Part shown: positions 1 to 56,325 of the stretch, piece by piece
Numbering within the stretch: position 1 is the first letter of the stretch
How the letters are laid out: each line of letters begins with the position of its first letter
Assembly (NCBI GenBank): GCA_002633005.1
Contig: NMRA01000004.1
Coordinates: 997,793-1,061,792 of the forward strand
Direction of reading: 5' to 3'
Source: Phoronis australis
Taxonomy: Eukaryota > Animalia > Phoronida
DNA: 64,000 nucleotides
Made by a program: the position numbers and the translations under genes
Notes under the pieces: generated by a model
The model's database searches: none
Seen by the model: the letters and a program-made list of their open reading frames with translations, nothing else
What the model was told of the DNA's origin: nothing

Positions 1-284
1 CCAGTTGTAAGTTTTGATAAAACTATCCAGTTAGACCACCGCATAAAAAGTCGTGAAGTTACGACATTATCGTGAAATTATGCTCCAGGTCAATATTGTG
101 AACTCAAGTGAGACTAACACCGTCTGTTTTCACTAAGCCATTTCTGACTTCGTTTAGGAACGTCCTTTGTAGGTTTTTACTCCAAACTGGAAGGCAATGA
201 GACGCCGCACTTAGATTTAGCTCGGCGATGTCATGCGGCTTTAATTCCGGTAATACATGTAATGGCGCCAAAGCCTTGTCGTAC

Positions 285-383
285 CTGATATATGGAGTGT
301 TCGCAGGAATGTGGTATTTTGCACCTGGATCAAAATCTGCTTCGCTCCTCTTCACAGGTGGTGCTAGACCTTGGTATTTACAC
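285..383 (-). CDS. ACE: ACE exon 10 (gene continues beyond the left edge)
   Basis: Acceptor CGTACAG|G, donor AG|GTACGA; 99 nt, phase 2/2; [33 protein letters not shown]. Confidence 0.93.
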
Positions 384-2409: not shown

Positions 2410-2554
2410 CTTAGGTCCCACCACTTTTCATTGTACTTGGTGTCGGGTGTCTCTCCACTGAAAACACTCCATCGCCACTGATCCATGAGATAACCAAATG
2501 GTATGAATGCGATTTTGTCCAGAGCCATGCTTAGAAGAAAGTTTAGGTCACTCT
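2410..2554 (-). CDS. ACE: ACE exon 9
   Basis: Acceptor CTTCAG|AG, donor AG|GTAATT; 145 nt, phase 1/2; [49 protein letters not shown]. Confidence 0.93.
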
Positions 2555-3311: not shown

Positions 3312-3410
3312 CCCTGTCATCTTCCACGTTGTCCAATAAACCAATTTCTTTCAAATGTTTTGGGGTGGCAACCGACAGCGCCAACACGTCTCCGACTGCT
3401 TCATGAAATC
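3312..3410 (-). CDS. ACE: ACE exon 8 (third zinc ligand, GFHEAVGD)
   Basis: Acceptor TTCACAG|GA, donor G|GTATGG; 99 nt, phase 1/1; [33 protein letters not shown]. Confidence 0.93.
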
Positions 3411-4527
3411 CTGTGAACAGCATACACCTAATTAAGCTTACAATTTGACCAATTGAAAGTGGGACCAAACGTCATATCAAATTGGTTTCCAGGTAACGTT
3501 TTTTAAACCATCGACAGCAAGTCTCTGATTTGCACAGAAGATATTGCCTTTCATACGTTTTCAAAAAATTTCCACTTGAATGTATAATGATATAATGATA
3601 CGCATGTCGTACAATTGTTTAACAGTACACGTCGTACGGAATAAATGTATCGACATAAAAACTTTGATGGAGTAAGAAATTAAACTAGGAGTTATCACAG
3701 TTACATTAACTGTTTCACTTTCAAAACAAAAGACGCCAGGAAGAAAAAGATGAAGCACAAAACGATTAACATAACATTGCCAAATCCGCGTGCTACAGAT
3801 ATCTGGACAGGCACATGTAAAGCGGTAAGTGGGGGGGAGAGACGGGAAGACGCCGTGAATAGAACAATACAGCCATACGGTGCAGGAACATGCGGTTGTG
3901 TGAAGACATCAATCTAGTGAAAAGAAAAGGCTGGAATAGGAATACATTAAATTTTAGAGATTCTCCCCATTTAGTAATTATCACGATAGAAAATTCATAA
4001 AAAGTACCACAAGACAAACTACTTCCAACATGACATCGCTTGAAAATAGATTTTTGATGAAAAAAATTTAAGGTCGACAGGAAGTGTAATTGAACTTTTT
4101 GAACAGGGACAATATGACACAAGAGACTTAAATAGCGAAATAAAACAAATGCATAGGCGTTTGCGCATTTGACTGCGTGCGCATGTTCTCAGCAGTCGCC
4201 GTTTTGTCAACAGGCACTGAAAGTTTATGCCCAGATCTTTAAGAAACAAGGCCGGCATTATAATCCTGGCTCGATTTTTTTCAAAATAGGTAGAATTTTG
4301 TTATTTTTTGACTCAGCACATTTTGGCAGTGACATTTGATAGCCACTAAACTTGACTTTGTATGAACTAAATCGACACTGTTAGACCAGTGGTTGGCAAA
4401 GTGTTTTGATTTTTAGACCGCCTAGTGAACTCTTTTGTCTGCCGTCGAGCCCCTGTGACCAGTTACAGTAAGAACAACAAAGTCTACTTAACATACAACT
4501 TTTTCAACAATAAGTTAGCGAGAAGGA

Positions 4528-4543
4528 TGCCCCCTAGTGGCCA
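4528..4543 (-). promoter_or_regulatory. CTCF-like motif
   Basis: TGGCCACTAGGGGGCA on the minus strand matches the CTCF core; motif match only. Confidence 0.4.
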
Positions 4544-6164
4544 CTACAACACATTAATATTTGGCTGATTATTAGTTAGGTTCATTAAGTCTCAAATCAC
4601 CACGCTCCTCTGGGTTTACTTGGTTTAGTCAAATAGTATTGGAGTGACCAAATCCTACTTCCACCGTGTAGGACCTGGGAAACGTGATCAGAAATGGCTT
4701 GACTACAGCAGAAATCTTGGGATACTTGCTCGTACTATTTACACTGGTCATGTAGTCTGCAAAACTGTGATTTCGTCACCAGGTGAACACACATAAACAC
4801 TATATCAACACGTTCTTCCTATAGGTCAGGTTCAATCTTTGTGCTTTCTATTCCTATCATTCATCGACCCCCCCCCCNCCCCCCCCCCCTGAAATGTCAC
4901 CGACCACCAAACGAACCCCCTGGTTATTGTCGACCCTCAAGGATCTTAACGACCCTGGGGGTCCATAGAGACACCCTTAACGACCACTACTGTATGTTAG
5001 ACAAGCCCAAAGTTCTACCTGCTGAAAACGAAGTAAACGATATCCTTAATGCTCTAACAACGGACCAACATTAGTGTGTTACGTGTAAAGTAACCGACAT
5101 CGTAGAGCTGCATGGAGAAACTTATCTTCTTCATGGTTGATAGTTTCCAAAAATTTAATACATTTCATCCAACGCGCACAAGAAGTTGTTGAGGCCTCAA
5201 AAGAGCAATTCCTCTTGTGACATAAAATAAAGTGTCTGCCTAAAATCTTTGTGGTACCATCGACAGTAAAAACATCAGTATGCATGAACGACGTAATGCA
5301 TCTACCACCAGATGCCGCAACGAGTGTCAAAATGGTTGAATTGTAATTGTTTCAGTTATTCAAATTCCATACCTACAAGATCATTTCTTACATTTTGAAT
5401 AACAAAATATGATGGCCGTAGGGACTTAGAACTATAGACGGAGCTCATAAAAACGAAACTCTGTAAAATTTATTCAGGAAGGTTAAATTAAAAGCTTTTC
5501 AACATTCTTCAATTGACATGCACTAACACTCGTCACAACCACGACATTCAACTGCAGTGCATGCGTGACTTAAGATAAATCTCAAGCTTTGTTCGGTGTT
5601 ATTGTAGTCTTACAAAAAGAGTAACGACGGTAATCGAATGTTATTGATACAATTATGCCAATTCGTGACACTCATGTCTAACGGTATTTGTAACTATGGC
5701 TTCAATTCCGACATCCCGGATTCAACTCTCCTATTTTCGGAGACAGAAAAACTTATTGTGTAACCGATCTATTTTGCGAACGTTAGGACCGCTTACACAA
5801 TTTTGAGCTGAGTAAGGGTAAGGTGGAGATTTATCATGCCTCACTCAGCTTTTCAAATTTGATAATGTCTTAACTGCAACTGAGTCACTCTACAACAGTA
5901 GGTCTAACACTGTAGGCCTATTGGTATCAGAATGACAGGTGGTACACTAATCTTAATGTAGTGACTACAATGGCAACGGTGCACAACCGTGGAGCAAGTG
6001 TCCTACTCCAGTCACACAACCGTGTGGGTTAATGCCGTAGAATCACTGAAGGCATTGTCTCCGGGAGCTTAGTAGCTTTACTTGCAGATTATAGGTGTGG
6101 TGCCTCACTGCGTGTGTGCTAAAATGACATGCCATCTCTCGGTAAAAGCTGACACTACAGTTAC

Positions 6165-6289
6165 CTGCGTTAGCACCATCTCGAAACACAACCGGAAGGT
6201 GTTTGTACTGCAGGAAGTATTGTATGTGACCCATCTCGTGATGTGATATGACAAAAAACTCCATGGTGATGTCCGAGCACTGCTGAATT
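6165..6289 (-). CDS. ACE: ACE exon 7C (HEXXH exon, variant C)
   Basis: Acceptor CTGATGGTAG|A (weak pyrimidine tract), donor GCAG|GTAACT; 125 nt, phase 2/1; IQQCSDITMEFFVISHHEMGHIQYFLQYKHLPVVFRDGANA. Confidence 0.88.
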
Positions 6290-6504
6290 CTACCATCAGA
6301 ACATTTCATAAACATTTGTAAGTCCTTTTAGCGGGGAAGGCCTAATCAGTGACTTGTAACAAGCATCATGACAACGTGGTACTCATGACTTACACGACTT
6401 TCTGTCTGAATTTCTGCACTCGGATATTTCCGCCGGTTCAGCACAGCCAACCAGCTAAGACATCTGATTGTCTTACAAGCCGGAAGTCATTATCGAGAAT
6501 CAAC

Positions 6505-6651
6505 CAGCCTCCCGTTCAGTAACGCTAGGACCTCGCTAAAAAGCGAGATTACGTGAGATATTGCCGTGTTATTTAAATGAAAACACGTGACTTTGACTAG
6601 GTTTTAGCTAGGTCCTAGCGTAGGTCCTAGCGTCTACTGAACGCACGCCAG
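6505..6651 (+). mobile_element. Short foldback MITE family A (between exons 7B and 7C)
   Basis: CGTTCAGTAACGCTAGGACCT ... AGGTCCTAGCGTCTACTGAACG inverted arms; homologous copies at 19134-19272 and 37463-37619. Confidence 0.8.
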
Positions 6652-7236
6652 ATGTCTCTGCCAGTGCACCGGGATCGAACTGGCGCAGTAAATCAAGTGA
6701 CATTGAAGATCATTATGAAGGAGCAGTACCTGTCTATACAGCCAGATGGCAGCAGTAGTCATCGGCTCCACGTGACTGGTCTATTTGGGTTTGCGATTGT
6801 GTCTCATTTCTGGGTGTAAACAGTGATGGAAACACAGACGCCTTAAAGGTGAGATACTATAAAATTAAAAATACACACGGAATTGTTCTCGACACCTCGC
6901 CAACGGTTAAGTATATTAATTTGGAAAGTAAATAAACATTAGCCGATGCATGTCGAACCGCTGTTTCTTTGTCTTAGTTAGAAACTACAACATTGAATGT
7001 AGACAAAATATTTGACATGCGTCATGCCTGGTACATCAGAAGTTACGAAGTGTGTTTATTTGGAAACGAAAGTGAAAACTGCCAAGCAATGCAAAGAAAG
7101 TCTGTAGATAGTTAATTAATTTTCGTTACCAAAAGCCGGTCAACAAAATCAACTAACAACACGATGGACAACAATAGACGAACGACTAAAAGGATGCCTC
7201 GCATACGGTTTGGGATCCTTAAAAAGATGGGTTTAC

Positions 7237-7361
7237 CTGGATTAGCTCCACCCCTCAGTTGAGGGGGCAGGTGTTTATATTGCATAATATACTGGATGTG
7301 TCCCATTTCATGATGAATCAAGACCAAATAGTGCATTGTCACCTGTGTGCAAGCCGTTACT
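7237..7361 (-). CDS. ACE: ACE exon 7B (HEXXH exon, variant B)
   Basis: Acceptor TTCTTACAG|A, donor CCAG|GTAAAC; 125 nt, phase 2/1; VTACTQVTMHYLVLIHHEMGHIQYIMQYKHLPPQLRGGANP. Confidence 0.88.
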
Positions 7362-8985
7362 CTGTAAGAAGTACCTGTCATAAGTAACCACAGGCCAGTG
7401 CCACTTCCGTGCAAACGGTAATGAATCCCGTAATGACGCAAAGCAATGGGATCGTGTAATTTCAAAGTCAAGAAAACATACGTTCGCCGGGATCGTAAAC
7501 TGACGATGACCCAAAGTCACAGCATCTGATCTGCGAACTTGGTCCTTGCAGAATTCGGCCGAAGCCGGGCAGCAAGTACGTTTGTAAGTCAGATAAGGTC
7601 TTGATCAATTCAGCATTCTTGATTTAGTGCATTATTACTGTACAACTAAAAAATCTTTAAAGACTTTTATCAATCTCAAGTGCATTATTAAATACTAAAC
7701 CGGAAGTGACGGGGCATATTTCGATGTGTCCGAGTAAGCCACGCTCTCATATAATTTGTGCCGTTTTCCAGTTCCGTTTTCAATAAATAAAATGACGTCA
7801 ACAGAATACAGTGAATACTTCATACAAATGAGGTTGGTCTTTAATTACCCCTTCAGGGCAATTGTCAGGGCTTTGTTATTTGGCCAGTCAAACTACATCA
7901 CGTCTGAATTAAAATCCAGTTGTCATTATTGAAATAGTCTTTTAAAAAAAGATGTTTAATATAGCCTAAAGCAGCATTTCGCCCAATGGATCTGGCTAAA
8001 GTCGAAAATCGAATTACAGTAAGTCTTATAAACTGGGTCAAAAAACATTCCTTACCTAGATTGGTTAATATTTCCGTTACCAAAAAGAACATTGAAACTA
8101 CAAGTATTAGCGATTTAATAAAAAAATCTCACAGTTAATTGGGTTTCGCCAACCCCAACTTTCGAATTTCAAAATGGCGCACGTATTTGTGAGTCTCCAG
8201 CCCAGTCGGATGATGGCAAATGTTCTTTAATAAGCTCATGAGCGAAGACTTCAACATAGCCAGCTAAACAGCCGTGAAATGTTCCGTTAACACCGTGTCA
8301 AATATACACAATTGACCAAAAAGCTGTTTAAATACGGTAACATTGATATCCGGCAGCAATGCTTGTAATCTTTGACCAGGGAATGATGAGCCTGCCACCA
8401 TGATTTCCGACACAGTCAATTTAACTGGCCATGTGGTACGCTCTCTCACCTACTGAAGAAAGGGGTGCGCGGTCATTTCTGTCGATCACGAAAAACACTG
8501 TCTTGTCGATATATGCATTGTTTACTATTGTCAGTGTTTCAATAAATTCATACGCCACCCATTTCCCTAGAATTTAATAGAAGTACTACCTCGGGGGGCA
8601 TGCGGTATATAATAACTCTGTGCGTCGCTGAGACAACAGTTCTACTAGTATTTGCAAGCTGCCAAATGCTACAAACATTTTATATTTCGAAGACCAAGCA
8701 AGCATAAGCTAAAGAAATCGTCGCATCGGGTAGATGTCACGTTACCTGAGAGAATATACCTCTGGAATCCCATTGTTCAGTGAATTGATCTAAGCCTATG
8801 CTACAGATACATGTATGCACTAATTTGAGCTAGTAATCTGCGCTGAGCAAAATAAGACATACCTGTCTCGAGCGCACGTGCACATGATTGCAATTTTCCG
8901 AACGGAACAAAAAGCTACTACTAAATCATCGCTGAACGTAATTACGCATCCTTTTTAAAAGCGCACGCTTCTGTTTATTGTCTTT

Positions 8986-9420
8986 CAGTGGCCGGTTGCA
9001 TGAAACGGTCCAAATAGGGACTCAGCTAAGCTCCCTAATTCTTTGTGCGTATTTGTGTTTTATGGTTTCACAGATGAAATGTTTTCTATCATTTCATCTT
9101 CATTATGAGCTCCTCATTGATTAATGACATTTTCTAATAAAATAACTAAAACAGAGCCCAGAGTTCATTGAAAATAAATAGTGGCTCAATCCTTAAATTG
9201 GAGGTGTTGCATGAAAAGATCCCTACTTTTTTCGATAATATTGACAATTCAGCGTAGAGTTCACTCTCAATTTGTATCAAAGTCAAAAGTTGACTTAGAA
9301 ATGAAACTAAAACAATGCAAGAAAGGGCAATCGATGTTTTCACAAGTCCAAAAATACGCAGTAGATTTAGGGAACTTAGTTGAGTCCTTATTTGGGACTG
9401 TTTCATGCAACAAGGCACAG
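8986..9420 (+). mobile_element. MITE family B (CAGTG termini; between exons 7A and 7B)
   Basis: TIR CAGTGGCCGGTTGCATGAAACGGTCCAAATAGGGACT / AGTCCTTATTTGGGACTGTTTCATGCAACAAGGCACAG; related copies at 23275-23856 and 25131-25486. Confidence 0.75.
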
Positions 9421-9777
9421 AACTCCTGCGCGCCAGAAAGCGAGAATATTAGAGAGTGAAAACTTGTAAAATTCCATGCTTCGCTTGTAATGCAGTGGCG
9501 ACATCTCAACTTCCGACTCAAGGAGGAACTAGCTTTACAGAACGCATCCGTGGGCTGACATGCTCAGCAAATGAACTTGCAGGTCTGCTAGCTCAGCAAG
9601 AAGTGTGCAAAGGGCATGCTCGTTAGACTGTAGAGAGGCGCAGTGCTGCCTTGATTGGACAGGTCCTACTCCGAAACGCGTCGTAATCGCGTTTAGAACT
9701 TGGAGGCTTAGTGTAATCGCGTGCAGGTGCCACGGTGCATGTGATGAGAGAGAACAGTGGTTCTAACCCCCCGCTAC

Positions 9778-9902
9778 CTGGATTAGCCCCTCTTCTGAAA
9801 TTAAGCGGCAGTGTCTTATACTGGAGGTAATATTCAATGTGGCCCATCTCGTGGTGAACAGTTATGAGGTCCTCCATGGTGATATCTGTGCACTGTTTAA
9901 TT
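9778..9902 (-). CDS. ACE: ACE exon 7A (HEXXH exon, variant A)
   Basis: Acceptor CATTTCAG|A, donor CCAG|GTAGCG; 125 nt, phase 2/1; [41 protein letters not shown]. Confidence 0.93.
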
Positions 9903-11212
9903 CTGAAATGTGACAACTGAAGTAAAGCGTGCACGTGATTCACCACCAGATGTCCTACTAGGCAAATCTGGTTTTGTCACAGTGAAGGAGTGATGGCTGG
10001 TTTCTGCGTGAATAAATAAATTATTTAACCAATAAAGACATGCAAGCAGATTAGTGGGATAGCGATTATTCCTGTGAATCGTGTCTTTAGTCTTAAAGGG
10101 ACATTAAACCTACTTTACAAATTCATTACAAAGTGGGTTAAATCTGTAAGCATGACTAGCACTTGAAGAGAGTTAATTGGCTGTTGGCGGGAAAGACCGC
10201 TCACCTCGAACCACGGGATCCATTTTTGACGTAATGAAGAAGTGTTTTGGTTAAACGTAGATATCTCTCAGAGAAGTTGCGTGTAAGGCTGCCAGTTGTG
10301 TAAGTAGCGGACAACGATCAACTGGTTTAGTGTTATTTTAATTTTGATTGTTGGTATGACTTCAAAAACATTATTCGTCAATTAACCTAAACGGCGCGAT
10401 GTTACTGTTGCGTTTAGCGTATGCCTGTCATAAAATGGTACCTAGTGAAACCAAAAGTTATACACGGCCGAAACTTAGCACGAGTTTAATGTGGAATTGA
10501 TTGAATGGAAACTACACTGAAATACAAAGTTCTAATGACGTCAGTCACATACATGACAACTGAGATTAAGTAATGAGGTGCTCGACACAGCGCCTTCGCG
10601 TTTGCTAAGACTTGTCACAAACGCTAACAGTAACAAGATACAGTAACCCTGCGCATGCGTCTTGAACCTAGCGCTAACATACGTGGCAACGGATGTTGTA
10701 ATTTCGTTGGCGATTTTTTTTAACTTGGGGTATTTCAGAAACACAGGCTTGATCAAGCTTTTTACAAGCATATAAAGTTTATCGGACAAGAAGATTTATT
10801 GAGATTTATGCCCGTTCTGTAGTATTCCCTATTACTTGAGTGAGTGAAGAGACGCAAAGGGGAGCGTCTGGCTTCACTTAGTGAAAAAGACGCGTGAATT
10901 TATTGACATAAAGACACGAGGCGTGTACTTTAGTGATCTACGTTTGTCCTGGTCCAAGATACATTGCGTTGTTGAAGTTTGTTTTCTAGTTAACAGAACT
11001 TGCAAACTCCATACTATTTCGACATCAACGGGCGGAGTTACAGCGGCTTCGCTGCAGCCATCTTTTTTGTTCCATGAGGTCGAGATGAAGTTGCAGCAAA
11101 TGTCCCTCAAACGAACATTGTAACGCCGTCGTTTATTAAAATCCTGACTGTACATTAAATGATTCTCCATTTTATACGAGAGCACGGTCCAATGGATTCG
11201 TTAAAATCTTAC

Positions 11213-11382
11213 CGAAAATCTTTGCCATTGTAGAAATCCCAAGCCGAAGCGTGGCAGACGACTTCTCTTCCTTCCGGTTTCACTATCATCGAATGGTTCC
11301 AAAATGCGGGTGGCATTGGTAGTAGCCCCAATGAAGTGAAAAACTCGTCAGACAATTCGAACATTTGCATCGCCGTGTATTT
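11213..11382 (-). CDS. ACE: ACE exon 6 (absent from ORF track)
   Basis: Hand translation: acceptor TTTACAG|AAA, donor CG|GTAAG; 170 nt, phase 0/2; [57 protein letters not shown] with the CHASAWDF motif. Confidence 0.93.
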
Positions 11383-12425
11383 CTGTAAATGAAAGAGATA
11401 TTGTTACCACGTTTCAAGTTCAGGTGGATTAGCAGATCTCATCGTCATAGCTTCATTTATCAGAATACCTATTCCAATATACTGAGATCATTTCAATATT
11501 TTAAATCCAAAGCGGTCAAACTTCACAAAAAGATATTTAACGTAAATCAACCTAGTCGCTAACAAAATCGCCGCCAAAGCTGAATGTAATTTAACTTCAT
11601 TTTTACAGACTTAGAAAACTCTGATAGTAAAACTTAAACTCAGCTAATTTATGAAGTGTTCCTATCTTGGATACATCTTTGGATTGATGAAGCACATCCT
11701 TTTTGAAATGCGGCAAGTGTCCATTTAAAAGTACATTATCCATATCGTTTCCAGCATCACGGGAAGACATATGTCTTGTTACATAAATTACTTTTATGTT
11801 GGCATCAAATCAACCTTCTACGTAATTATAATTACTTTACAAATTAGCAATTGTTTGATTAAAGTTATGTAGGACCATAGAATAATTTGCTATCATGGCT
11901 AACTTCGAAAAATATCTCAGAATGAAATACCACCGTCCCGCCGCACCATTTCATGGGTTTTTAAGACACCCGCAATTTTTCATTGGAATAAAAATCGTTG
12001 TCGAGCGTTTTTGTGTGTTCGAAAAAAATAGCTGTCGGGGCGTTTTTGTGAGTTGCGGCGAAACTTCCTCCTTTGCATTTTGGCATGTAGCCAGATGTCT
12101 CGTTTTTAATCCGGATGTCAATCCAGTTATCCGGTTTTTTTATTCTCGAATGTTGATTGTCTTTCCGTTATTAATATTGTATTTCTTTAGTAACATAGCA
12201 ACAGCAACAATTAATGTTCCAATGTTCCTTTGTCACGGTAATTCACACTATATGTATCAGGATCACTAATTTTTACTTTCAATTCTAAAGAAATGCGCTT
12301 ATTTCCAAACGTCTGTGTAAAGTCAGAGTTCTACAATGCAAACACTGTTGTGTGCTATCCACAGTATACGTCTATGCCACATAATAGATAAATTGGAGAA
12401 TATTATACATCCAGTTGATAGATGT

Positions 12426-13034
12426 CAGCAAAAAACCTTAAAACTAATACTGGACTTACATTTCAACTGAGCGACGTTGCGTCCTCATCGCGAGGACTTT
12501 CACAAGTCATTGCCGTGGTGGTGTTCGGCTGATGACGTAATCGGCGGGAAAAGAAACACCGTGTACGGTCCCAAGTCTTGGAGAGCTGGCCGAATCTGAA
12601 TCCGCCTTGACAATTCAAGGAAGGGCATTCAACACCTTCGTAGATAGATTCCTTGACACCACGTTTGAACCAGTTTTCCTTACGATCCAACATCGTACAT
12701 CACTGGAGTCAAATGAATGTTTTGCAGTGTTGATGTGAGTGAAAACAGCGGAATCATACGTGTCCCCATAACTGAGCCGGCGGTGCTGGTTCATTCTGCT
12801 TTTGACAGACATCAAGGTTTCACCCAGGTAGGACTCGGTACACCCCTTGTCCTCACGTGTATTACCATAAACGACATTGGAGACTTTTTTCTTGGGAACC
12901 TTGTCTTTTACCCGGACTAGTCGGCTCCTGAGAAAGTCGATTACGTCATCAGCCGAGCACCACCACGGCAGTTGCTAGTGAAAGTCCTCGTGATAAGGAC
13001 GCAAAGCCCAGTATTAGCTTTAATTGTTTTGCTG
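12426..13034 (-). mobile_element. Penelope-like element remnant (GIY-YIG 3' end with inverted pLTR arms)
   Basis: Frameshifted KDKVPKKKVSNVVYG...SYLGET...SRMNQHRR...SAVFTH...HSF...LDRKENWFKRGVKESIY...PSLN; the ~110-120-bp arms 12426-12545 and 12935-13034 are inverted copies. Confidence 0.75.
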
Positions 13035-14240
13035 CATAATAGATGTTTACCCATTTTTTATATATCAGAAAACTCTTACTGGCAAATTCTTGATAGGTGC
13101 TGTAATTAGTTTGTCACATTTTTTGTTAATGTCAATGCATCCTGAATTTTTGCTGAAGAATATAAATGTATCAAACGGCCTCTAAGTCCAATTAATATAT
13201 AAAGATGTATAATTTTGGAAGAATCACTGACCAAATTCTTCACAGCAACTGTGAGGGATCTACACTCTAAAATCTTTGTCTGCCGGCAATATTTTGAATC
13301 ATTGGAACATACTATTTTCCTGCTGGTTTAACTAGTTATTTATACAACCTTTCGGTTTTATTTCATTTTTACGTTACTATTGCACAATAGATTAATTGAC
13401 ATTACGCTTAATTAAATAACTAATTAGATAATTAACCAGTCAGTTGGTACACGAGGGCTTTCACTATTACACTATATCATTTTCCGCATTTTCGTAAGTA
13501 AAACTATTGTTTTTATAATGTAAAGTATTTTTAAAATTGTCTGCTATGCAAAATGATAATTATTTATGAAGTAAATTGTTTATTCCTTGCTTCTGATATT
13601 ATCGAAATCAAGAGCTTTTGAAGAGCTTTCTTAAGATATGATTCTTATGCAATTCGGTCGAAAAACTGTAGAGTTATGAAAAGTTATACTGACACTATTC
13701 CAATTGGCCTGGTGCTAACATACAGTACATGTACGTACATGTATGTACATTATATATTTGTTATGACTTGTCCTAAGTACATGATTTTGGTATCGTAGCA
13801 GAGCTCAGGAGATGCTTCATCATACCGATATATTTTAAGGAAATTGTAAACTTTCGAAATTGTTGTACAACAGGTTCCTCTAGATGGCTTTACGTTACGT
13901 CTACCAGTTAGGTAGCGGTACCCACGGGCGGCTTACCGAATTGCGGAACACCTGGAGCTATGATGACGACGGAAACGGCATGACTAAGGTTGATGAGGGT
14001 CAAAAAGACAACAATCTCGCGAAAAGGCAGGACTTTACAAGCACGTGATCACACGAACTTCCTTAGCGAGATTCTTCAGTGCGTCTCTCTACCCTGGTCA
14101 ACCGGTGAGACATCTGATTGGTTTGAAAGAAAGCCAAGCAGTCAAAAACCAATCAGATGCTTAGCCGGTTAACATACCGGATGAACTGGCATGAGCAGAC
14201 GGTAACATACTGTAAGTAGATGTAAAACGAGAACACTCAC

Positions 14241-14338
14241 TCTTTCTATAAGTGTAGGCGTTATGTCAACGCTTTCTTTATCCGGGTATGGTCGAATAAA
14301 GCTGAGCAAATTACTCCATGTCTGTGCCCACATGTTTC
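14241..14338 (-). CDS. ACE: ACE exon 5
   Basis: Acceptor TTTTTCCAG|GA, donor AGA|GTGAGT; 98 nt, phase 1/0; GNMWAQTWSNLLSFIRPYPDKESVDITPTLIER. Confidence 0.93.
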
Positions 14339-14975: not shown

Positions 14976-15173
14976 CTAGGAGGTGAGCTGGAATGTGTCC
15001 GCCCTGAGGAATCTTGTCCTCCCCGTGCTTTGCTCTTAACTTCTTCCTCACAAACGCGTGCAGCTGTTCGTACAAAGGTTTGAGCTGGTCGTACAGTCGG
15101 ATAAGGTCTGCTTGGAAATCATAGCCAGGAACGTCGTATGATGATCGCCAAAACACGCCCGTGTCTTTATAGC
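14976..15173 (-). CDS. ACE: ACE exon 4
   Basis: Acceptor ACTACAG|GC, donor G|GTACGG; 198 nt, phase 1/1; GYKDTGVFWRSSY...QLKPLYEQLHAFVRKKL...IPAHLLG. Confidence 0.93.
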
Positions 15174-16304
15174 CTGTAGTGGATATATGCATTGCTGGTT
15201 TCATTCATGAACGTTTACTTGTTAATACATTTACACCGTAAGCATATGACTGCTATAGTTTAGATAGAGGCTTTCATGGGTGTTATAGAACCCTTAGCAC
15301 GTATCACTGATCGTTAACTGTACGGAGAGGAAGTGTTAACACGGAAGAATCAATCAACCACCGCTCTTCTAAACATAACCGCAAAGACCAGTATCTCTGA
15401 CTACACGCAGATGTCATTCCAAAGAGCGCTGAACAGCAGCAACACGTACATGTAAGCACACTTAGTGCTGCCAGCCGAGAGGCTGCAGCACATACGGTGG
15501 TACTCTACAGGTAGTGCCACAATACAGTTAGACTGTGGCCACGTGCTATTTGCACTGTTTAGAAATTACCTAAATATTTGAGGCAGAACAGGTTTGGCGG
15601 CAAGATGGGACGTGTGCAATGCCAGGAAAATGTGAGAATTGAACTGTACCTCCTTACCAAGCACTACGTAGTTCCTGTGTAAGTGTGGTGCGGCCTAGTA
15701 AGCGTTCGACTATCGGTCAGGATCTTTTGGAGAGTAATAAAATATATACATGTTCCTCACGCCATAACTGTGGAATTACGAATTAGTTGGGATACTGCGA
15801 TTTCTCCCTGTCGTGTCAAAAACGAATGCGAACGCAACCTTTGAAGTAAGCTGTGAAATGATTCATATATAATTACAATACCAGGTTGTGCAACGATTTT
15901 GAAAAAAAAAACAAATGGTTTTGTTCTAACGTATTTGTAAGCCACTAGAAATATTTCTTTTTCGTAAAAGTATGCAGACGTATTATCACAAATTAAAATT
16001 CTTATCTCTGGAGAGTTGCTCACCCCTTTCTTCACTACACACCTTGCAATGATACGTCATTCCTATATTTCAAAATCGATTGGCCAATACTTTTAACATT
16101 TCTCATTTCCATGGAAAACATCTTTAACCAATGACATCATTCTAACTTTGAATTCCAGATGGACAATTGTACATTTTCTCGGCGTTACGTTTTCACAATG
16201 CTGACACTCAGTCGGTGAAGTTTCAATTGTTTTTCCAATCAAGCGGGAGGATCCACGTTATTGTCAAACGCACACGCTAATATGAAAATGTCATGTTATA
16301 TATT

Positions 16305-16469
16305 CAGGGGCGGATCCAGGATTTTGAGTTTGGGGGGCAGGGCAGAGTATTAGCCAGGATTTTGGCCGTCAGACATTCGCACCCCCGTACTTCCAAATGG
16401 AATCTGGGAGAATTTTAAGGGGGCCTTGGCCCCTTGCCCGTCCCCCCCCCCCCCTTAAATACGCCACTG
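16305..16469. mobile_element. GC-rich MITE, CAGGGGCGGATCC type, 5-bp TSD
   Basis: CAGGGGCGGATCCAGG ... AAATACGCCACTG flanked by ATATT on both sides. Confidence 0.65.
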
Positions 16470-18110: not shown

Positions 18111-18345
18111 CGTTTAGGCCAGCGGCTTCATTCGACAGCTCAACAAACTCCTTGTACTTTGGCCTTATTTGAGGTCCAGTGACGTCACGCCACCCTTTCC
18201 ACGCCCATAACAATTCGTCGTATGACGCACTAGGATTTGCCATTAGTCTCGTCAGGTCGGGTTCGAGCGTATTCAATTTTCCGTTCTCATCTTTCACTTT
18301 TCCAGTGCTGTATATTGTCTCCATGTCCGTCACTAACTGCTGGAG
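18111..18345 (-). CDS. ACE: ACE exon 3
   Basis: Acceptor TTCAG|CTC, donor G|GTATGG; 235 nt, phase 0/1; MET-IYSTGKV...LEPDLTRLMA...YDELLWAWKGWRD...YKEFVELSNEAAGLNG, typical ACE motifs. Confidence 0.93.
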
Positions 18346-18907: not shown

Positions 18908-19075
18908 CTTTTTGTACTTCTCCTTGTCTACTTCAGCCAGTTTTGCCGAGCCGATGTCGCTAATTTTAGACAGTTGTCGTTTGATGAACGTGTCGTTGAA
19001 GCCAGACCAATCAAACATGGAAGCATTTTTGGCTGCCTCCAAGTCGAAGTCCGCTTCCACAAGGGTGAAGTTGAG
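18908..19075 (-). CDS. ACE: ACE exon 2
   Basis: Acceptor TTTTTTTAG|CTC, donor AAG|GTATGT; 168 nt, phase 0/0; LNFTLVEADFDLEAAKNASMFDWSGFNDTFIKRQLSKISDIGSAKLAEVDKEKYKK. Confidence 0.9.
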
Positions 19076-19133
19076 CTAAAAAAACGAAGAGGATATCTCA
19101 AGGTATAGACCAAGAAGCAAAAATCAAACCACG

Positions 19134-33831: not shown

Positions 33832-34936
33832 AGGCGAAGGCAACCTTTTTCCATGTCATTTTGAGCTAAAATAAGGTTGGTTGGTTATCCTAGACATATT
33901 TTCCACTTAATTACAGCTTTTCGTAATTTTATTAATTACTCGTCCGCTACTGCGGAAGTGACGTTTTAGGAGGCAAGCATTTCGCGCCAATTTCTTTTCA
34001 TATAGTCTGACTGTGAGAGCTGCCGAGTCAGTCATTGTTCTACCTCGGTTGTGTTAAGTTCCGTCGTCGTTTGCTTTCATTTACTAGTCAGTCAACATGC
34101 CACACTGTTGCTGCGTACCGGAATGTACTANGGGCCTTTAATCACTCCCACTACTCAATATCGCTGCAGGGCTGCTTAGAGGCTCTGGGCTGGAGAAAAC
34201 AGCACAGGGCGAATCACTACTGGTTTCAGGAATTGCACGCTCTGGGGTACGTTCGGAGGCACAGGTGACAGTAGATGAAGTGCCTCAACTGGCTCCAGTC
34301 ACTTTACTGGCCACAGCTCGCGAGGCTTCTCGCTTCAAAAAAGCACTTCTCGGGGGTGGCGACGGGGCACTGCCGGGAATCAACACAGACGGAATGGCAT
34401 CCTTCTTCAGGCGTTGTTTCGCAGGGACCTTCGTCAGTTCAGCGTACAAATCCCTTTCGTAAGCGGAGGGCAAAAAGTGCTTGCCACACACACGGTAATT
34501 CGCCACTGCTTTGTACATGTACGTTACGTGGACGGGTAACGCTGCCTTCTGCACACGAACGAGCCAAGTACGGCGAAGTCTGTCATCCATCGGAAAGCGA
34601 TGCAAAGGTACTCCCAAAGCGCGCGTGAGTCGATAATTAGTACAGTCCGGTACGCAGCAACAGTGTGGCATCTTGACTGACTAGTAAATGAAAGCAAACG
34701 ACGACGGAACTTAACACAACCGAGGTAGAACAATGACTGACTCGGCAGCTCTCACAGTCAGACTATATGAAAAGAAATTGGCGCGAAATGCTTGCCTCCT
34801 AAAACGTCACTTCCGCAGTAGCGGACGAGTAATTAATAAAATTACGAAAAGCTGTAATTAAGTTGAAAATATGTCTAGGATAACCAACCAACCTTATTTT
34901 AGCTCAAAATGACATGGAAAAAGGTTGCCTTCGCCT
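33832..34936 (-). mobile_element. Kolobok-like non-autonomous DNA transposon carrying a THAP ORF (copy 1)
   Basis: TTAA on both sides (33828-33831, 34937-34940), AGG...CCT termini, ~299-bp near-perfect TIRs (33832-34130 / 34638-34936). TTAA + RR..YY termini + THAP fit the Kolobok superfamily. Confidence 0.8.
34285..34671 (-). CDS. THAP-domain ORF of the transposon (truncated transposase/accessory protein)
   Basis: MPHCCCVPDC...LHRFP...W...RVCGKHF...RLKKDAIPS: C2CH zinc finger, conserved P/W/F and AVPTIF-like box. Confidence 0.8.
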   Translation of the reverse strand: MPHCCCVPDCTNYRLTRALGVPLHRFPMDDRLRRTWLVRVQKAALPVHVTYMYKAVANYRVCGKHFLPSAYERDLYAELTKVPAKQRLKKDAIPSVLIPGSAPSPPPRSAFLKREASRAVASKVTGAS

Positions 34937-40402: not shown

Positions 40403-40426
40403 AGGATACGTTGGCTTCTCACTTAC

Positions 40427-40624
40427 CTGCAGCTCCTGGTTGTAATCCGTAATATTTGTGTTGTAATTCCATGCTGCCAAAACACTATTGTAGTAAACTT
40501 CTTGAGCTCTCTGGTTGTACTGCTCCAACCAATCGCGCGCGACATTTTCGTCCGTAATTTTCTGCGCTTCCGTCTCCTGCAGCGAGTACGTGCAATACAC
40601 GAAAACGACAAAAACGCGAAACAT
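40427..40624 (-). CDS. ACE: ACE-like peptidyl-dipeptidase (M2 family), exon 1 (signal peptide + first helix)
   Basis: ATG at 40624; MFRVFVVFVYCTYSLQETEAQKITDENVARDWLEQYNQRAQEVYYNSVLAAWNYNTNITDYNQELQ with the ACE N-terminal motif W(N)YNTNIT; 198 nt, donor CAG|GTAAGT, phase 0. Confidence 0.9.
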
Positions 40625-41944
40625 CGTCCGAAGTCCGGTTTCACTCCGTTCGAAGTCCCAACAGCAAACCTCCCCGCTTAGGACCAACGAGCGCACTCTA
40701 GCACCAAATCCGAACTGCTAATAGAGAAGATAAACACATACTCAACAACCTGTTATCTTTAAGTGGATGCGCCAACGAAAGGCTGTTATCTCTCGGCAGA
40801 GGGCGCTTATGTATGGCACCAATGAAATGCTGGCAATTAGCTACAATTTTCGATTAGGAAAAGAGGGCTTGGCGCTGTTACATTGTCATGGAGTCTTTGA
40901 AAGAATGGGAGTGTCAAAGCGTGTGTGATTGATCGTTCTTGACGAAATCAGTCGTTTATGCCATGCAATCACATTTCTACCACTTTAATTAGTCGTACCG
41001 TGGTGTTTTTAGACTAAACATTATTCAGGTTATAGGTTATGCTACACGCATGCTTCTAAGGATATTAGTTTGATTATCAGGGAACATTCTGCAAAATAGA
41101 TTTGTATTACTACGCGGTAGACTGTTTATTTGATGCGGCACAAATGTGCAAGTGCATTACAATAATAGTTGATTTCTCAACTGCACGCAACATTAATAGT
41201 GCCCCCTCTGCTGGAATGGCATGCAAAGTCATGCGACCTTAGAGTCAACCTTGACTTGTAAAGCTATATACGAAAAATCACGTGCCTGATAATTCAGTCG
41301 AGCCTCAGATATAGCGTCTTGGTGGTCGAAGGCTTCACGTGTATGTGCAAGAAAGCAGTTTTTCTACACCGGCCTTCCCCTAGGCCATATGAAATCGAGC
41401 GTGAATAAATGATGTCACGTGTGTGATATTAATTAGCATTAGTTTGCCTTGAACTGTTTTGGTCCCTCACCTTAAAGGGACAATATCGACAAGTAACGAG
41501 ATATCGTGAGATCAGCCTCAGGGTGGAATCGAACCTGCAACTCCTTTGGTTGCAGTCTAACGTCCTGCTAGCAGAGCTAAGTCCCACTGAATTAAAATTG
41601 ATGACTGGGTATTTTAAGAGTATGTACTCGTAGTTAAAATCACCGGTCTCGATATCAGCGAATGTCTGGCAGACAACAGGGCCATTAGCGTTTTGTAATA
41701 AAATTTCAAAACATAGCAGCTCCCTTCAACGCTGATAACTTCATGAAGTCTGTACGATTCAGGAATAGTTCCCAAAACAGTGTTTTGGGCCGTTGGGACG
41801 TAAACCCGAAAACGTCCGTTTAGCATAATTTTCCTACTTATGTGCAGGTGCGTAGGAGAATATTTTTGTCTCAGTGTCGCTGATGCATGTACAGCAATAT
41901 TGTAACTTACGTGTAGCTTCAGCAGAGTGCGAAAGTAAGTAACA

Positions 41945-51850: not shown

Positions 51851-52820
51851 CCACCCATTCCGTCGCTCGGGAACGCCTATGAACCATGACGTTCTGCTTA
51901 TGAAGTACTGAGACGCATTTGCAAATTTATCATAATGCTATGGCAATAGCTTTAATTTTTACTTGGTGCTTGAATGCTTGGATATATTAATCTAACATGT
52001 TTAATGGTTGGTACAGGCAATGCTGTCTATGGACAGAAGAATATTCGTTGTCTCTAGATTAATTTCACTTCAACTGTGTTGACTGACTAGCAGGACTTGA
52101 TTTCTGGCGCCCATGAGGATGTATCCTACAGGGTTTTTAAATCATTTGCATATTGGAAGTTATCATGGTATGTATCTATTGTGAACCAAAGTTTATTGAC
52201 TTGTTCGGATTGAGGGTTTCTCCCAGTTACGAAATCGACCAATGCGCAGTAGTAATTCATGTTGAAAAGGTAGGTAAACCATGAGCGTACCCACCCTTTA
52301 ATTATGGGGGGCTCGAATCTCCGACATAGTGGACCTTTTGCTTACAAAAGAGCGGGAGGACTAAAAAACAACAAAAACGGGGTACCACCTTCAGGTCTGT
52401 GAACTGTGCGTCTGCGCCTTTTTAGTGGACTTTTGTCTCGTTTTCTCGGAATTTTTGTTTCTCTGAGGCGGACCTTTTTACCCACTTCGCCAAATGGGAG
52501 GCTCGTTCGAGTCTCCGAACCCCCTCCCCCCTGGATGAGCATCTTCCAAAGTCCACATAAATGACACCATATATTTTTAGAATTAGTGAATAAAGGAAAT
52601 CTAGCCGTCTCTTTCATGAGAATTTGCGCCCTAGAGTGCCCTCTGCATGCATTTCAATCAGATTGTCGTTCACTTTGGAGCACTCTGTGAGGCGGAGATT
52701 TCAAAATGAGTCGGCCATATAGTCTGAACCAACTATGCTACAGTTTCATAAACTTTAGTGTTTTTGCATATACCCGGAGTTAAATGTAGAGAACTAGAGA
52801 AGACAAATATTTCAACTCAC

Positions 52821-53526
52821 CGTTAAAGCCAAGAAAACCATGCGCACCAAGCATGCTGGGATAGAACCAAGGTGACGTCACGAGAGGTTGTGTGGCTGTC
52901 GTGGTCCCGGGTAACATCGGGGTTTGGAATGGGAACATAGCAGGTAGAATCTGCGGCTTAACGGTGCTGCTCTTCAATGCCGTGGCGTCACTAGTCGATA
53001 TCGCATATTTTTGTCGATCACAAAAAGATTGGTTGCCTTGTTCTAACGTGATTTTGTAAGGTGCGTTAGCCTTGCTTTCCTCCGCCAATTTTGCTAACTT
53101 TTTGTCATAACTGCAAAACCTGTCCTCGACTTCTCCACAATCGCTTTCGTTGTCCGAAGAAAATGTCTCTAGTGATCCACAAGCGTTTGGTGTTGTCTTT
53201 TTGGGCAATGTATCATTTTGTAGGATATGATCGATTGTGAAAGCAAACTTTGTTTGTATATCCTTCAGGTTGGAATTGTTAAGAGATAAAGTCTTGCATG
53301 ATTCCTCTTTGCTTTGCCCTGATGTATCGGGCGCACCCGTTCCACTCGGCGTGAATGATGAAGTCAGGTTTAGCGATCCCGCGAGATTAACCGTTGTCGA
53401 TGCGGCTGACTCGCCGCTGGCAGGCATTTTTATACCGCGACAGAAAGAATCTCCACGGCGTTCACTAATTTTCAAACTACCGAAATGAGAATGAAATGAC
53501 ATCGGACTCGGCTTTATAGCGGACAT
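52821..53526 (-). CDS. Nedx: Nedx/lms-type ANTP-class (NKL) homeobox gene, exon 1
   Basis: Long Ser/Thr/Pro-rich ORF from ATG 53526 with an eh1 Groucho-binding motif (FTIDHIL); donor AACG|GTGAGT, 706 nt, phase 1. Confidence 0.85.
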
Positions 53527-56325
53527 ATAATTGGTTCTTACAACATATGCGCGATAATCAATATAAACTTACTTTTCGTGAATAAAGAACAACACTTCAC
53601 GTAATGTAATTGTCAAACATTTGCACACTCGTTCTCAAGTAGCTGCTTTAATAATCTTATTTGCGCCAACTTAACCACGTGTTTGACATCCATGCGCATA
53701 CATGAAACCCGGTTGTTGAATGACAGTAAAAGATTGGACGTTCCTGGAGTAATTAATTATTCATTATACAAGAATACCAGCGAAAACGTTTGATTGGACA
53801 ATTTTTAATGATCTGCCCTGGAGTAAAGAAAACCACGAATGATTAGGCATAAGTGAAAACTTAGTTAGTCAAGGCTACATTTTTTAATGATGCCACTTTT
53901 TTATCAAACGACCGCTTACACGTGGATACAGGTATCCATTTCCGGAAATTACGGCACTTATGTATTTATTTGACTCAATATAAGGTTAAAGGGCAACAAA
54001 CCTACGCCCCATGCCAAAAAAAAAATGTTTAGGCCCTTAATGTTATAAAACCGGTATAACCTTGATCCAGTCTCAAATTGGAGATATTTTAGGCTTGAAG
54101 AGACTGGTAATCGCGCTTTTTCGGGCAGTAGAGAAAGGGCATCGACAGCGATGTCAGTTCTAATAAAGAATGTTAAACAGTCACGGTGGTGACCCGGGTT
54201 GTGTTGAAACGGTGGGACCGGGACTCCGTGAGATTTATAAGTCTGTGGCGACCTTGGGAAATAGGGGGAGGGGTGAAAACAATGGCGACTGGAGGCGGCG
54301 AAATTGGTGGCGACGGGGGTTTTGAATTGGTGGCGATGGAGGGGAAGAGAAAGTATTCACACGCCTATGGTCAGGCACATTTACATCCCCATGCCAAATG
54401 ACGTCGTGTGGAAGTCGCAAGGTGTTGTTTAACTTATGGAATCCATTCGACGGGCGTAAGCTAGCTCATCGCGAGGGTTATAGCCCATGGGTCTCTACCA
54501 TTGTTTTCTTTGTTGTGTCATTGTTCGATACAACTATACAGGTTGCACGAATATGGTACCTTGGGCGCACACCAGCGTTTTACTGATAAACGCTCACTCT
54601 TATCTTCATTATAAGAAAGAAAAAAAAATGAGCAATAGATACGCCTATCTACCGATCTCTATTATACTTGACGAGTTTCGACACCTAGTTCCCCCCGAGT
54701 TTTGCCCCCCACCCCCTCCAGACGCAAGTTTTGGTACATGTACGTCTATGACCAGGCAATTTCAATTCAAACAAAGTAGAAAAAAATCAATGACGTTGCT
54801 TTGGAAGTACAAATGCATATGACGAAAGCTAACGTTTTTAGCACTACACCGTGGTGCTCTAGCGTTGTGCACAGGTTCCAATTTTGAAATAATCTGGCGC
54901 ATGTCTTCTAAAGATGTCCGAAGACGAAACCTTAATAATTTGCGTAATACCGTCAATGTTTTTGACACTACTTTAGCCGGCTTATCAAAGACGCAACGGA
55001 GTGTGTACTTAATTGCTGTAAATACATACACTTATGAGTCATGTTTGATAAATTTTATGTCATTATTTTGTTACTCCCATATATTAATTGGGATGCGTCA
55101 GGGAAAGCATAATGTCACCTTCCATGTGGCTAAATTATCATAATAGTATTGGAAAATTTTAGTATTTGACGTTTATTTTTGTCTTGACATACTGCGTGAG
55201 CCAGGACTGGTTGCCTGTGATTGCCATATCGCGGACAAGGTGGAACCGCAGACATTACCCTAGTTTTGTACTTGAAAAAATGAGTTTTAACTTCGGATGG
55301 AACACATTCCTCATTGTTTGAAACTCGTATCACAGGAAACTGTAATTTTCAAATTGTGCCTAGCGTGTCTTTATCACATCACATCCATTTTTTCTTTAAA
55401 ATTAGAATATAAAGGTCTTGTGTATTGGTCAGCCTCAGGTATAGAGACATATATATTTATGATACCAGCTTGGTGTAAACAAATATACATTAAGTCTATT
55501 TAAGACTCTAGAAAAATTACAAATGCCTAATATTTGGGATCATCATATCTCAAAAACAGCTTATCGGATTCGGGTGAAAGTTTCACATGGTACGCATAAT
55601 GCATTATTCTCCTAAACACTGTTAGCGATTGATTTTAAATTGTTCCATTTTTGAATGAGGGTCTATCAAAAATTAGGTTTCCTGTGATTTTTATGTCTGA
55701 AAATCAAATTTGCATTAAGAAAAACGAAATAGTAATAACAGCATTTTTTAGGTTTCATCTTGAACATTCGTATCAAATAAAATTTGGTGATGTTATTGAT
55801 GGCCAGTCTTTTGCTATGAATGTAGTCTACTTTTTTTCTTTGCTAGATTTTGCTAAAAAGACTTCGCCAAGTGACCCACTCAATGACAGTTTAGTACGAA
55901 GTTAAAATCAAAGTATACATGCTTTATACTTTCATAAAATATTTACTCAAGTCCTGTACATATTTGGTTAAATGCGTAGACCTGTCGATAAGGTCCTACA
56001 CAACCTGAAAGCGAATACAAACCCGCCTTTCATCTCAGAACCATTTTTTGACACCAGGTGGTGATTTCGGGTAAGTTTGTTATTACTCGAGACCAAGCCC
56101 TGAAAGTTATCTTGTATATTTTTCTACTCGATGAACCGAGAATAGTTTTCAAAAAATAACTAAGCCAGGAAATCATTTCTGATCTGCAAATGAGCAGGAT
56201 AAAACCACGTTTATAGCAGCAAGTGGTTAAAGTCACGTGACAACTTCTCCGGATGGAAGGCGATGTAGTCACTTTTTAACTCATTTGAATTGTTTCGCAA
56301 TTGATATTTCAAACCCTGGTGTCGT

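Follow-up and report, generated by a model that had tools for sequence, protein, structure and literature searches.

Three tandem copies of the zinc-binding exon in a Phoronis australis ACE gene differ at positions equivalent to human domain-selectivity residues

An ACE (peptidase M2) gene of the phoronid Phoronis australis contains three tandem copies, here called exons 7A, 7B and 7C, of the exon that encodes the HEMGH zinc-binding motif. The gene lies on the minus strand of a stretch of 64,000 nucleotides (nt) that was analysed whole and is referred to below as the window (NCBI GenBank assembly GCA_002633005.1, contig NMRA01000004.1, positions 997,793 to 1,061,792 of the forward strand). The copies differ at residues of the S2 and S1′ pockets that set the N and C domains of human ACE apart. 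On balance, we lean towards the view that the gene yields at least two, and probably three, isoforms by including one of the three HEMGH exons, likely altering the S2 and S1′ pockets and the preference for peptides and inhibitors. A sequence-only reading of this DNA had placed the exon variants at 6165..9902, which is exact: on the minus strand, the span runs from the first base of 7A to the last base of 7C. It had also proposed that splicing switches substrate selectivity between an N-domain-like, a C-domain-like and a third type, converging on what vertebrates obtain with two tandem domains.

Results

Three intact copies of one exon

Exons 7A, 7B and 7C are real exons rather than chance open reading frames. 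All have a length of 125 nt, an AG just before the first base, a GT just after the last, and the same phase. The terminal CG of exon 6 and the A at the start of every copy together make up an Arg codon, and the G at the end of every copy opens the Gly codon that exon 8 completes. All three match the Pfam Peptidase_M2 profile (PF01401, curated cut-off 23 bits) at positions 332-372, with 66.4 bits for 7A, 53.9 for 7B and 54.6 for 7C. This slot fits exactly between exon 6, which matches up to position 331, and exon 8, which matches from position 373; exon 4 also matches the profile. The HHEMGH sequence (the HEXXH zinc/catalytic motif), a Cys and a GAN motif are kept in all three copies.

The copies are separated by introns of 2416 nt (7A to 7B) and 947 nt (7B to 7C), and share 59-66% of their nucleotides pairwise. 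The proportion of synonymous differences between copies (pS) is 0.85-0.89, which is saturated, and that of nonsynonymous differences (pN) is 0.21-0.30. Because pS is saturated while pN is low, and because 41 open codons, the exact length and the splice sites have been kept, all three copies have been maintained as coding sequence for a long time. Selection of this kind is the strongest argument that all three were functional for most of their history.

The reading frame also sets limits on how the copies can be combined. In a frame check, exons 3 to 10 stayed open over 391 codons whenever 7A, 7B or 7C was included singly. If the whole exon-7 cluster is skipped, a stop follows three codons past exon 6, and double inclusion leads to a stop at codon 43 (7A+7B) or codon 103 (7A+7C and 7B+7C). 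Exclusive use of one copy could thus be enforced by frame incompatibility, with wrong forms presumably lost by nonsense-mediated decay. The introns between the copies are long, so hindrance by a short spacer is not applicable here. When docking/selector RNA pairing was searched for, 14 inverted pairs came up, all short and imperfect, and no single site was able to pair with several selectors. Two imperfect inverted repeats, 8529-8550/10895-10916 and 9693-9715/10513-10535 (82% and 74% complementary), link the intron 5′ of 7A to sequence 3′ of it; they would loop out 7A and are at chance level. The 20 nt before the acceptor contain 14 pyrimidines for 7A, 12 for 7B and 10 for 7C, the last being also the number for the constitutive exons 4 and 8. 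A retro-copied or intron-less origin was considered for 7C, as the intron just 5′ of it translates like the end of exon 6, but was rejected because the nucleotides do not support it.

Residues at the selectivity positions

The 41-residue in-frame translations of the three copies (window 9779-9901, 7238-7360 and 6166-6288, all on the minus strand) were aligned to human somatic ACE (7q3y_A). All align without gaps to residues 345-385 of the N domain (nACE) and 943-983 of the C domain (cACE), and the equivalence of positions rests on this ungapped alignment, at 50-80% identity, to solved structures. Within it the variable residues do not lie away from the subsites. The bit scores against the two human domains (N/C) favour the N domain for 7A (59.6/52.3), the C domain for 7C (42.0/49.2) and neither for 7B (45.3/43.5). 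The residues that the sequence-only reading had picked out by counting from HEMGH (Tyr, Arg and Ile-Thr in 7A; Ile, Gly, Val-Leu and His-Tyr in 7B; Phe, Asp and Val-Ile in 7C) are all correct by this alignment (Table 1). The human numbering and selectivity pairs that it had given agree with PMC7148434, PMC3875237, PMC9796954 and PMC12025037.

Table 1. Residues of the three exon copies and of the human ACE domains at six positions, in human N-domain numbering
Sequence	354	355	357	358	369	381
Exon 7A	E	D	I	T	Y	R
Exon 7B	H	Y	V	L	I	G
Exon 7C	E	F	V	I	F	D
Human N domain	D	Q	S	T	Y	R
Human C domain	E	D	V	V	F	E

PMC7148434 describes an N-domain mutant (PDB 6tt1, also matched by 7B and 7C in the alignments) that carries Y369F and R381E in S2, T358V in S1′, and S260T, E262S, D354E, S357V and E431D beyond S2′, in the distal prime-side region. 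The affinity for the N-selective 33RE dropped 254-fold with the S2 pair, 22-fold with the prime-side set and 900-fold with all eight changes; D354 and S357 act via the hinge region without direct contact, and T358V left the affinity for omapatrilat unchanged. PMC3875237 gives losses of 36-fold for Y369F, 8-fold for R381E and 250-fold for the YR/FE double mutant, and PMC9796954 ascribes the C-selectivity of RXPA380 to Phe391 and Val379/Val380. Table 3 of PMC12025037 lists 11 subsite differences among AnCE, cACE and nACE. Exon 7 holds five of these 11, namely both of the S2 differences and all three in S1′.

The S2 pair of the human N domain, Tyr369 and Arg381, is present in 7A and absent from 7B and 7C. 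At the prime side, where nACE has Asp354, Gln355, Ser357 and Thr358, 7A matches Thr358 only; it has Glu-Asp at 354/355, the C-domain state, and Ile rather than Ser at 357. Judged by these residues, the match of 7A to the N domain is a mosaic, and the description of 7A as N-domain-like stands for S2 and Thr358 but not for the rest of the prime side. Exon 7C has the Phe of the cACE S2 pair (Phe391 and Glu403) together with Asp, which is acidic and one carbon shorter than Glu. Among the cACE residues Glu376, Asp377, Val379 and Val380, 7C matches those at 376 and 379, has a similar hydrophobic Ile at 380 and is mismatched by Phe at 377. The C-domain likeness of 7C applies to Phe, the acidic residue, Glu376 and Val379, is approximate at position 380 and does not extend to 377. 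Exon 7B differs from both types, and its Ile/Gly S2 pair has no human counterpart. The site equivalent to Glu403 is basic (Arg) in 7A, neutral (Gly) in 7B and acidic (Asp) in 7C, as had been proposed.

S2 residue classes across the ACE family

A family set of 255 unique exon peptides was taken from the first 224 ACE proteins fetched and is vertebrate-heavy. In this set, the residues at 369 and 381 are Tyr-Arg in 46 peptides, Phe-Asp/Glu in 117, Phe-Arg in one and Tyr-Asp/Glu in 16, Tyr thus being coupled with Arg and Phe with an acid. A hand-made list of 66 proteins not named as vertebrate gave 108 unique peptides, with nine Tyr-Arg/Lys, 12 Tyr-acid, two Phe-Arg/Lys and 50 Phe-acid pairs (Fisher P = 1e-4, uncorrected for phylogeny). 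The residues of 7A and 7C place them in the two main S2 classes of the whole ACE family. Tyr/Arg and Phe/acid are the commonest classes, so the occurrence of both among three copies is not rare in itself; three random draws from the class counts of the 255 peptides contain both about one time in three.

Among the multi-domain proteins in the 66-protein list, 29 of 34 have at least one Tyr domain and at least one Phe domain. A Tyr/Arg domain is combined with a Phe/acid domain in six of the 34, these being from a hemichordate, a tube worm, a tardigrade, a limpet and a water flea, plus one further protein.

Recurrence of duplicated HEMGH exons

Metagenome contigs were scanned with the three-copy alignment. 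This gave 80 loci, all with the exon and 63 with at least 300 nt on both sides. More than one match was found in 11 of the 80, of which L002, L037, L075 and L076 resemble two-domain genes or transcripts and L052 repeats only part of the exon. Same-strand tandem copies were present in six (L004, L007, L017, L028, L061 and L069). In five of these six contigs both copies are 125 nt long with AG and GT; L017 repeats a longer exon and has no donor there. The spacers between copies measure 32 nt in L004, 38 in L028, 33 in L061 and 45 in L069. An intron has a minimal size, and a spacer of 32-45 nt would be too short for splicing, which would sterically preclude the use of both exons. No second ACE domain was found downstream in L004 (8.7 kb) or L007 (5.7 kb), and these are probably one-domain genes.

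Further cases were found among proteins. The Gryllus bimaculatus gene model P0141 (residues ~247-354) reads through two copies and the spacer between them, with Phe, Glu in the first copy and Phe, Arg in the second at 369 and 381. The resulting protein has two zinc motifs 50 residues apart; most likely, alternative exons have led the annotation astray here. Read-through open reading frames with diverged copies were also seen in P0227 (Thr, Thr and Tyr, Arg) and P0230 (Phe, Gly and Tyr, Arg). Moreover, two pairs of RefSeq isoform predictions differ in this exon alone. Procambarus clarkii isoforms X1 and X2 (XP_045585497.1 and XP_045585498.1, 673 residues each) have nine differences, all within the HEMGH exon (Phe, Asp versus Phe, Thr), and Choristoneura fumiferana isoforms X1 and X2 (XP_073942651.1 and XP_073942652.1, 644 residues each) have 17, again all within it (Phe, Asp versus Tyr, Ser). 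An alternative HEMGH exon was not found in Physella isoforms X1 and X2, which have one exon version in common, and the cluster from a stick insect comprised only one protein. A scan of the first 224 proteins for identical flanks around different exons returned only cross-species vertebrate pairs, which were dropped.

Two other arrangements were noted in ACE genes. At L052:247-640, five head-to-tail units of 63 nt each comprise the 3′ half of the HEMGH exon and its GT donor, and a repeated 3′ half is likewise present in proteins P0164 and P0232; this is a row of alternative donors and not a set of whole alternative exons. In Mercenaria mercenaria, the three-domain ACE-like RefSeq isoforms X1 and X2 (P0003 and P0384, 1823 residues each) have 18 differences between residues 1100 and 1137. 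These lie in another exon, which covers the YFVSFVVQFQFH region of domain 2, so alternative exons may occur at a second site in ACE genes.

Positions that differ between copies

Positions 369 and 381 were compared with the other columns of the exon in the first eight diverged loci, which comprise 7A/7C of the window, the six tandem contigs and Gryllus. Each of the two differs between copies in seven of the eight loci, and every other column differs in at most five. A set of 12 loci was obtained by adding P0227, P0230, Procambarus and Choristoneura, with the window counted as 7A/7C and with P0225 and P0231 excluded. In it, position 369 differs in 10 of 12 (all except Gryllus and Procambarus) and 381 in 11 of 12 (all except L017). 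The loci are not all independent. Copies in L017 and L069 have only three and four residue differences, with the Tyr/Phe site among them both times, and their third codon positions are 59% and 46% identical.

A null model was used in which the chance that a column differs follows its family-wide diversity and the number of differences per locus is fixed. Against this null, position 369 gave P = 0.0035 for the eight loci and P = 0.0009 for six, after the related-looking L028, L061 and Gryllus were collapsed. The test is meaningful only because the columns had been named beforehand by the sequence-only reading. When columns are ranked by pairwise diversity, 357 and 381 rank third and fourth and 369 ranks 11th.

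RNA evidence for exon use

Three raw RNA sequencing runs (X2, X3 and X4) with the same species label, from one study, were used, and about 18% of each run was read. Exon 6 was joined to 7A by 70, 26 and 68 reads in X2, X3 and X4 respectively, and 7A to exon 8 by 40, 33 and 75. An additional source, the contig run X1, holds a 3244-nt contig that includes 7A. Joints from 7B to exon 8 were carried by two, four and two reads. Further reads (0, 3 and 1) joined the 7B donor to a cryptic acceptor at 6856, which lies 380 nt downstream of 7B beside a repeat; this joint is probably an unproductive by-product that arises when 7B is used. X3 is the only run in which 7B is covered more deeply than its flanks (~7-13 versus 1-7). 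In the sampled RNA, 7A is the default exon and 7B is rare.

Within the long intron that separates 7A from exon 8 and contains 7B and 7C, sense-strand depth is steady at ~3-9 over 3841-9600, and it is 0-3 in other ACE introns (10241-10880 and 11521-13440). The higher depth may reflect an intron that is removed slowly or is alternatively processed at a low level.

Gene structure and surrounding sequence

The ACE gene was mapped by tblastn with ACE proteins, and the bounds of its exons were refined with RNA joints and a frame check (Table 2). The portion within the window is most of one catalytic domain, and the gene crosses the left window end after exon 10. Exon 1 starts with Met and a hydrophobic stretch, so the encoded domain is the first of the protein. 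Exon 8 contains GFHEAVGD, whose Glu we take by homology to be the third zinc ligand. Among the fetched proteins, the closest match to the whole gene is domain 1 of a chiton (Liolophura) ACE, with 49-86% identity per exon.

Table 2. Coordinates of ACE exons and of the cryptic exon in the window
Feature	Position	Strand	Evidence
ACE exon 1, first coding	40418..40648	-	tblastn; Met near 40624, signal-peptide-like start; bounds approximate
ACE exon 2	18908..19077	-	tblastn; RNA joint 18345/18908; X1 contig piece
ACE exon 3	18111..18345	-	RNA joints; frame check
ACE exon 4	14976..15173	-	RNA joints; Pfam PF01401 positions 175-242
ACE exon 5	14241..14338	-	RNA joints; frame check
ACE exon 6, donor into exon-7 cluster, ends with CG	11213..11382	-	RNA joint 9902/11213 (70, 26, 68 reads); Pfam 270-331
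Exon 7A, 125 nt, HEMGH copy, default	9778..9902	-	164 reads to exon 6, 148 to exon 8; X1 transcript contig; alignment
Exon 7B, 125 nt, HEMGH copy, rare alternative	7237..7361	-	Donor joints to exon 8 (2, 4, 2 reads); X3 depth step; alignment
Exon 7C, 125 nt, HEMGH copy, intact, no use seen	6165..6289	-	AG/GT, length, open frame, alignment
Cryptic exon, acceptor first base 6856, lower bound nominal	6700..6856	-	Joint 6856/7237 (0, 3, 1 reads)
ACE exon 8, GFHEAVGD, common acceptor for 7A and 7B	3312..3410	-	RNA joints; Pfam 373-405
ACE exon 9	2410..2554	-	RNA joints; frame check
ACE exon 10	281..383	-	RNA joint 381/2408; loose end at 281 reading into next exon

At two sites in exon 8 (3379 and 3394) and one in exon 4 (15012), about half of the RNA reads in all three runs carry another letter; heterozygosity or variation in the population is the likely cause. 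Additional differences from the window are present in the X1 contig. Three stretches in ACE introns (6500-6655, 9080-9415 and 16300-16400) have very high RNA depth on both strands with many variant letters, and loose ends there run into unrelated sequence, those near 7C at 6503-6651. A 20-nt inverted repeat lies at 6522-6621. In appearance, the high-depth stretches match dispersed-repeat or mobile-element copies. The 21-kb first ACE intron holds an open reading frame of 131 residues at 34285-34680 (minus strand), which begins MPHCCCVPDCTNY and appears to resemble a THAP-type zinc finger of transposon origin. Located 5′ of the ACE gene, at 52780-53568 on the minus strand, is a Ser/Thr-rich open frame of 262 residues.

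Discussion

The explanation that we favour is a choice of one from three HEMGH exons that would likely change the pockets of one catalytic domain. With Tyr/Arg, Thr358 and Asp355, the 7A form would prefer acidic or hydrogen-bonding P2 groups, as the N domain does. The 7C form (Phe/Asp, Ile358 and Phe355) would have more hydrophobic S2 and S1′/S2′ pockets, similar to those of the C domain, and the 7B form (Ile/Gly, Leu358 and Tyr355) a wider, uncharged S2. Preferences at P2 would thus differ with the 369/381 pair, and those at P1′/P2′ with position 358 (Thr, Leu or Ile) and position 355 (Asp, Tyr or Phe). By analogy with the human N and C domains, it is plausible that these pocket differences change substrate preference. 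The lack of 7C reads leaves room for its use in other samples, and 7C would be expected in some tissue, stage or condition outside those sampled. The splicing switch put forward in the sequence-only reading is in keeping with the five subsite residues in the exon, purifying selection on the copies, the joining of both 7A and 7B to exon 8 and the recurrence in other loci. It is not matched by the use of 7C, for which there were no reads, or by that of 7B, which accounts for only ~7% of donor joints.

Several observations weigh against this explanation. Among the 160 donor joints, 148 are from 7A and 12 from 7B, and four of the 12 lead to the cryptic exon. No 7C joint of any kind was present in the ~18% of each of the three RNA runs that was read, and depth over 7C (1.5-5) does not exceed that of the intron apart from, at most, a slight increase in X3. 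In the same runs, no joint into the acceptor of 7B rose to the listing threshold, so some 7B transcripts may be 7A+7B forms that end in a stop. Residues absent from all 255 family exon peptides occur in 7B (Thr2, Ala3 and Ile369) and in 7C (Gln2 and Ser15), which could mean relaxed constraint. Protein searches returned no protein with a 7B- or 7C-like exon: the best match to 7C was 32/41, in Dimorphilus, and none of the best 150 of 451 matches among 1.84 billion representatives had a 7B-like exon above 72% identity, a value that itself covers part of the exon. In addition, S260, E262, E431 and T496, which contribute to human N/C selectivity, lie outside exon 7. Elsewhere, both copies have Phe at 369 in Gryllus and Procambarus, and the read-through frames P0225 and P0231 contain identical copies with no S2 switch. 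Position 381 is among the most variable columns and does not depart clearly from the null (P = 0.069; 0.14 after collapsing), and, taken post hoc, the probability that some column differs at seven of eight loci is 0.43.

The joint counts, the background-level depth of 7C, the residues unseen in the family and the lack of database proteins are all compatible with a gene in which only 7A works. Exons 7B and 7C would then be leftover duplicates, silent or a source of splicing noise such as forms removed by nonsense-mediated decay, and the residue pattern would be meaningless. We consider this unlikely, as leftover duplicates would not be expected to retain coding features, length, splice sites and motifs at saturated pS, with pN of 0.21-0.30, nor to score 54-66 bits on the Pfam profile in every copy, and as the HEMGH exon is alternative in the crayfish and moth RefSeq isoform predictions. 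It is less likely still that the exons are used but affect catalytic rate, stability or hinge motion, or give an inactive or decoy form, with the N/C likeness arising from columns that tolerate change. Few columns are indeed as variable as positions 357 and 381, no classes are commoner than Tyr/Arg and Phe/acid, and, in PMC7148434, D354 and S357 work through the hinge and omapatrilat affinity is unaffected by T358V. However, position 369 differs beyond its variability at both locus counts, and the Tyr/Phe site is among the very few differences in L017 and L069 despite their diverged third codon positions. Moreover, direct structural and mutational data on human ACE tie 369 and 381 to P2 recognition.

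A further alternative is that 7A and 7C did not diverge after a local duplication but descend from the two old domain types of an ancestor with two domains, and that rearrangement or gene conversion placed them side by side. Exon 7A is indeed nearer to Tyr/Arg exons from distant animals, matching P0172 at 38/41 and a frog N domain at 34/41, than to 7C (27/41), and many invertebrate two-domain ACEs pair both types. At the 35 positions that remain when six key sites are left out, however, 7C is equally near to both classes (mean identity 23.3 to Phe/acid and 23.4 to Tyr/Arg), and 7A and 7C share 26/35, where the best match of 7C anywhere is 28. Likeness to the classes is thus limited to the key residues, which fits local duplication followed by divergence there, i.e. 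convergence, and not two inherited ancient exon types. A deep history of this kind is beyond the resolution of 41 residues, and we hold it to be very improbable. This key-site likeness fits the convergence put forward in the sequence-only reading. Invertebrate two-domain ACEs also pair Tyr/Arg with Phe/acid, so the contrast is not vertebrate-specific.

Returning to exon choice as the favoured explanation, a wider proposal can be put forward only tentatively, and we stop short of calling it probable. Invertebrate ACE genes may have duplicated the HEMGH exon repeatedly, with exclusive splicing toggling S2 between Tyr and Phe and between Arg and an acidic or neutral residue, so that a single domain gains a dual specificity like that of separate N-type and C-type domains. 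With three states, Phoronis australis would have the richest switch among the loci examined. Domain selectivity of ACE is a major theme in drug design, with N-selective inhibitors sought for fibrosis and C-selective inhibitors for blood pressure, and it is ascribed to a handful of residues, five of which are in exon 7. If the proposal is true, an experiment of the Y369F/R381E type has been run by nature many times in independent lineages, and peptide-hormone processing in invertebrates could be tuned per tissue by splicing and not by the number of genes or domains. Gene models that read through both copies, such as P0141, or that pick one arbitrarily would then be misannotated. Natural exon variants, including the Ile/Gly S2 site, would be ready-made pocket designs for structure-function work.

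Comparison with known systems

Mutually exclusive exons and the determinants of ACE N/C selectivity are already known, and alternative HEMGH exons sit in the crayfish and moth RefSeq predictions. No paper describing alternative HEMGH exons of ACE was found in full-text searches, whose coverage leaves out most subscription journals. What is distinctive at the Phoronis australis locus is the presence of three copies, the long introns and an Ile/Gly version found in no other ACE examined.

Human somatic ACE (7q3y, 3nxq, 1o86 and the mutant 6tt1) belongs to the same fold family and has the same 41-residue stretch. Exon 7A resembles its N domain in Tyr369, Arg381 and Thr358, and 7C its C domain in Phe391, Val379, the acid at 403 and the hydrophobic residue at 380. 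However, human ACE has two domains in one chain, whereas the Phoronis australis variants are alternative exons of one domain. The selectivity residues outside exon 7 are constant among the Phoronis australis isoforms, unlike those of the human N and C domains. Single-domain Drosophila AnCE (PDB 2x8y) has the S2 pair Phe375/Thr387, its S1′ residues being tabulated against cACE and nACE in PMC12025037 (Table 3), and has one fixed exon, with no evidence of alternative HEMGH exons encountered.

The Procambarus and Choristoneura isoform pairs swap the same exon, but they have two variants, not three, and come from arthropods. In the tandem contigs and Gryllus P0141, the copies differ at Tyr/Phe, Arg/acid or both, as 7A and 7C do. 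Spacers in L004, L028, L061 and L069 are 32-45 nt long, whereas at the Phoronis australis locus three copies are set apart by long introns. Tropomyosin, Dscam and ion channels provide the classical clusters of mutually exclusive exons: homologous exons in tandem that agree in length and phase, one of which enters each transcript, with the reading frame as a safeguard. Unlike in these clusters, the exon swapped in the ACE gene holds a peptidase zinc motif together with residues of the substrate pocket.

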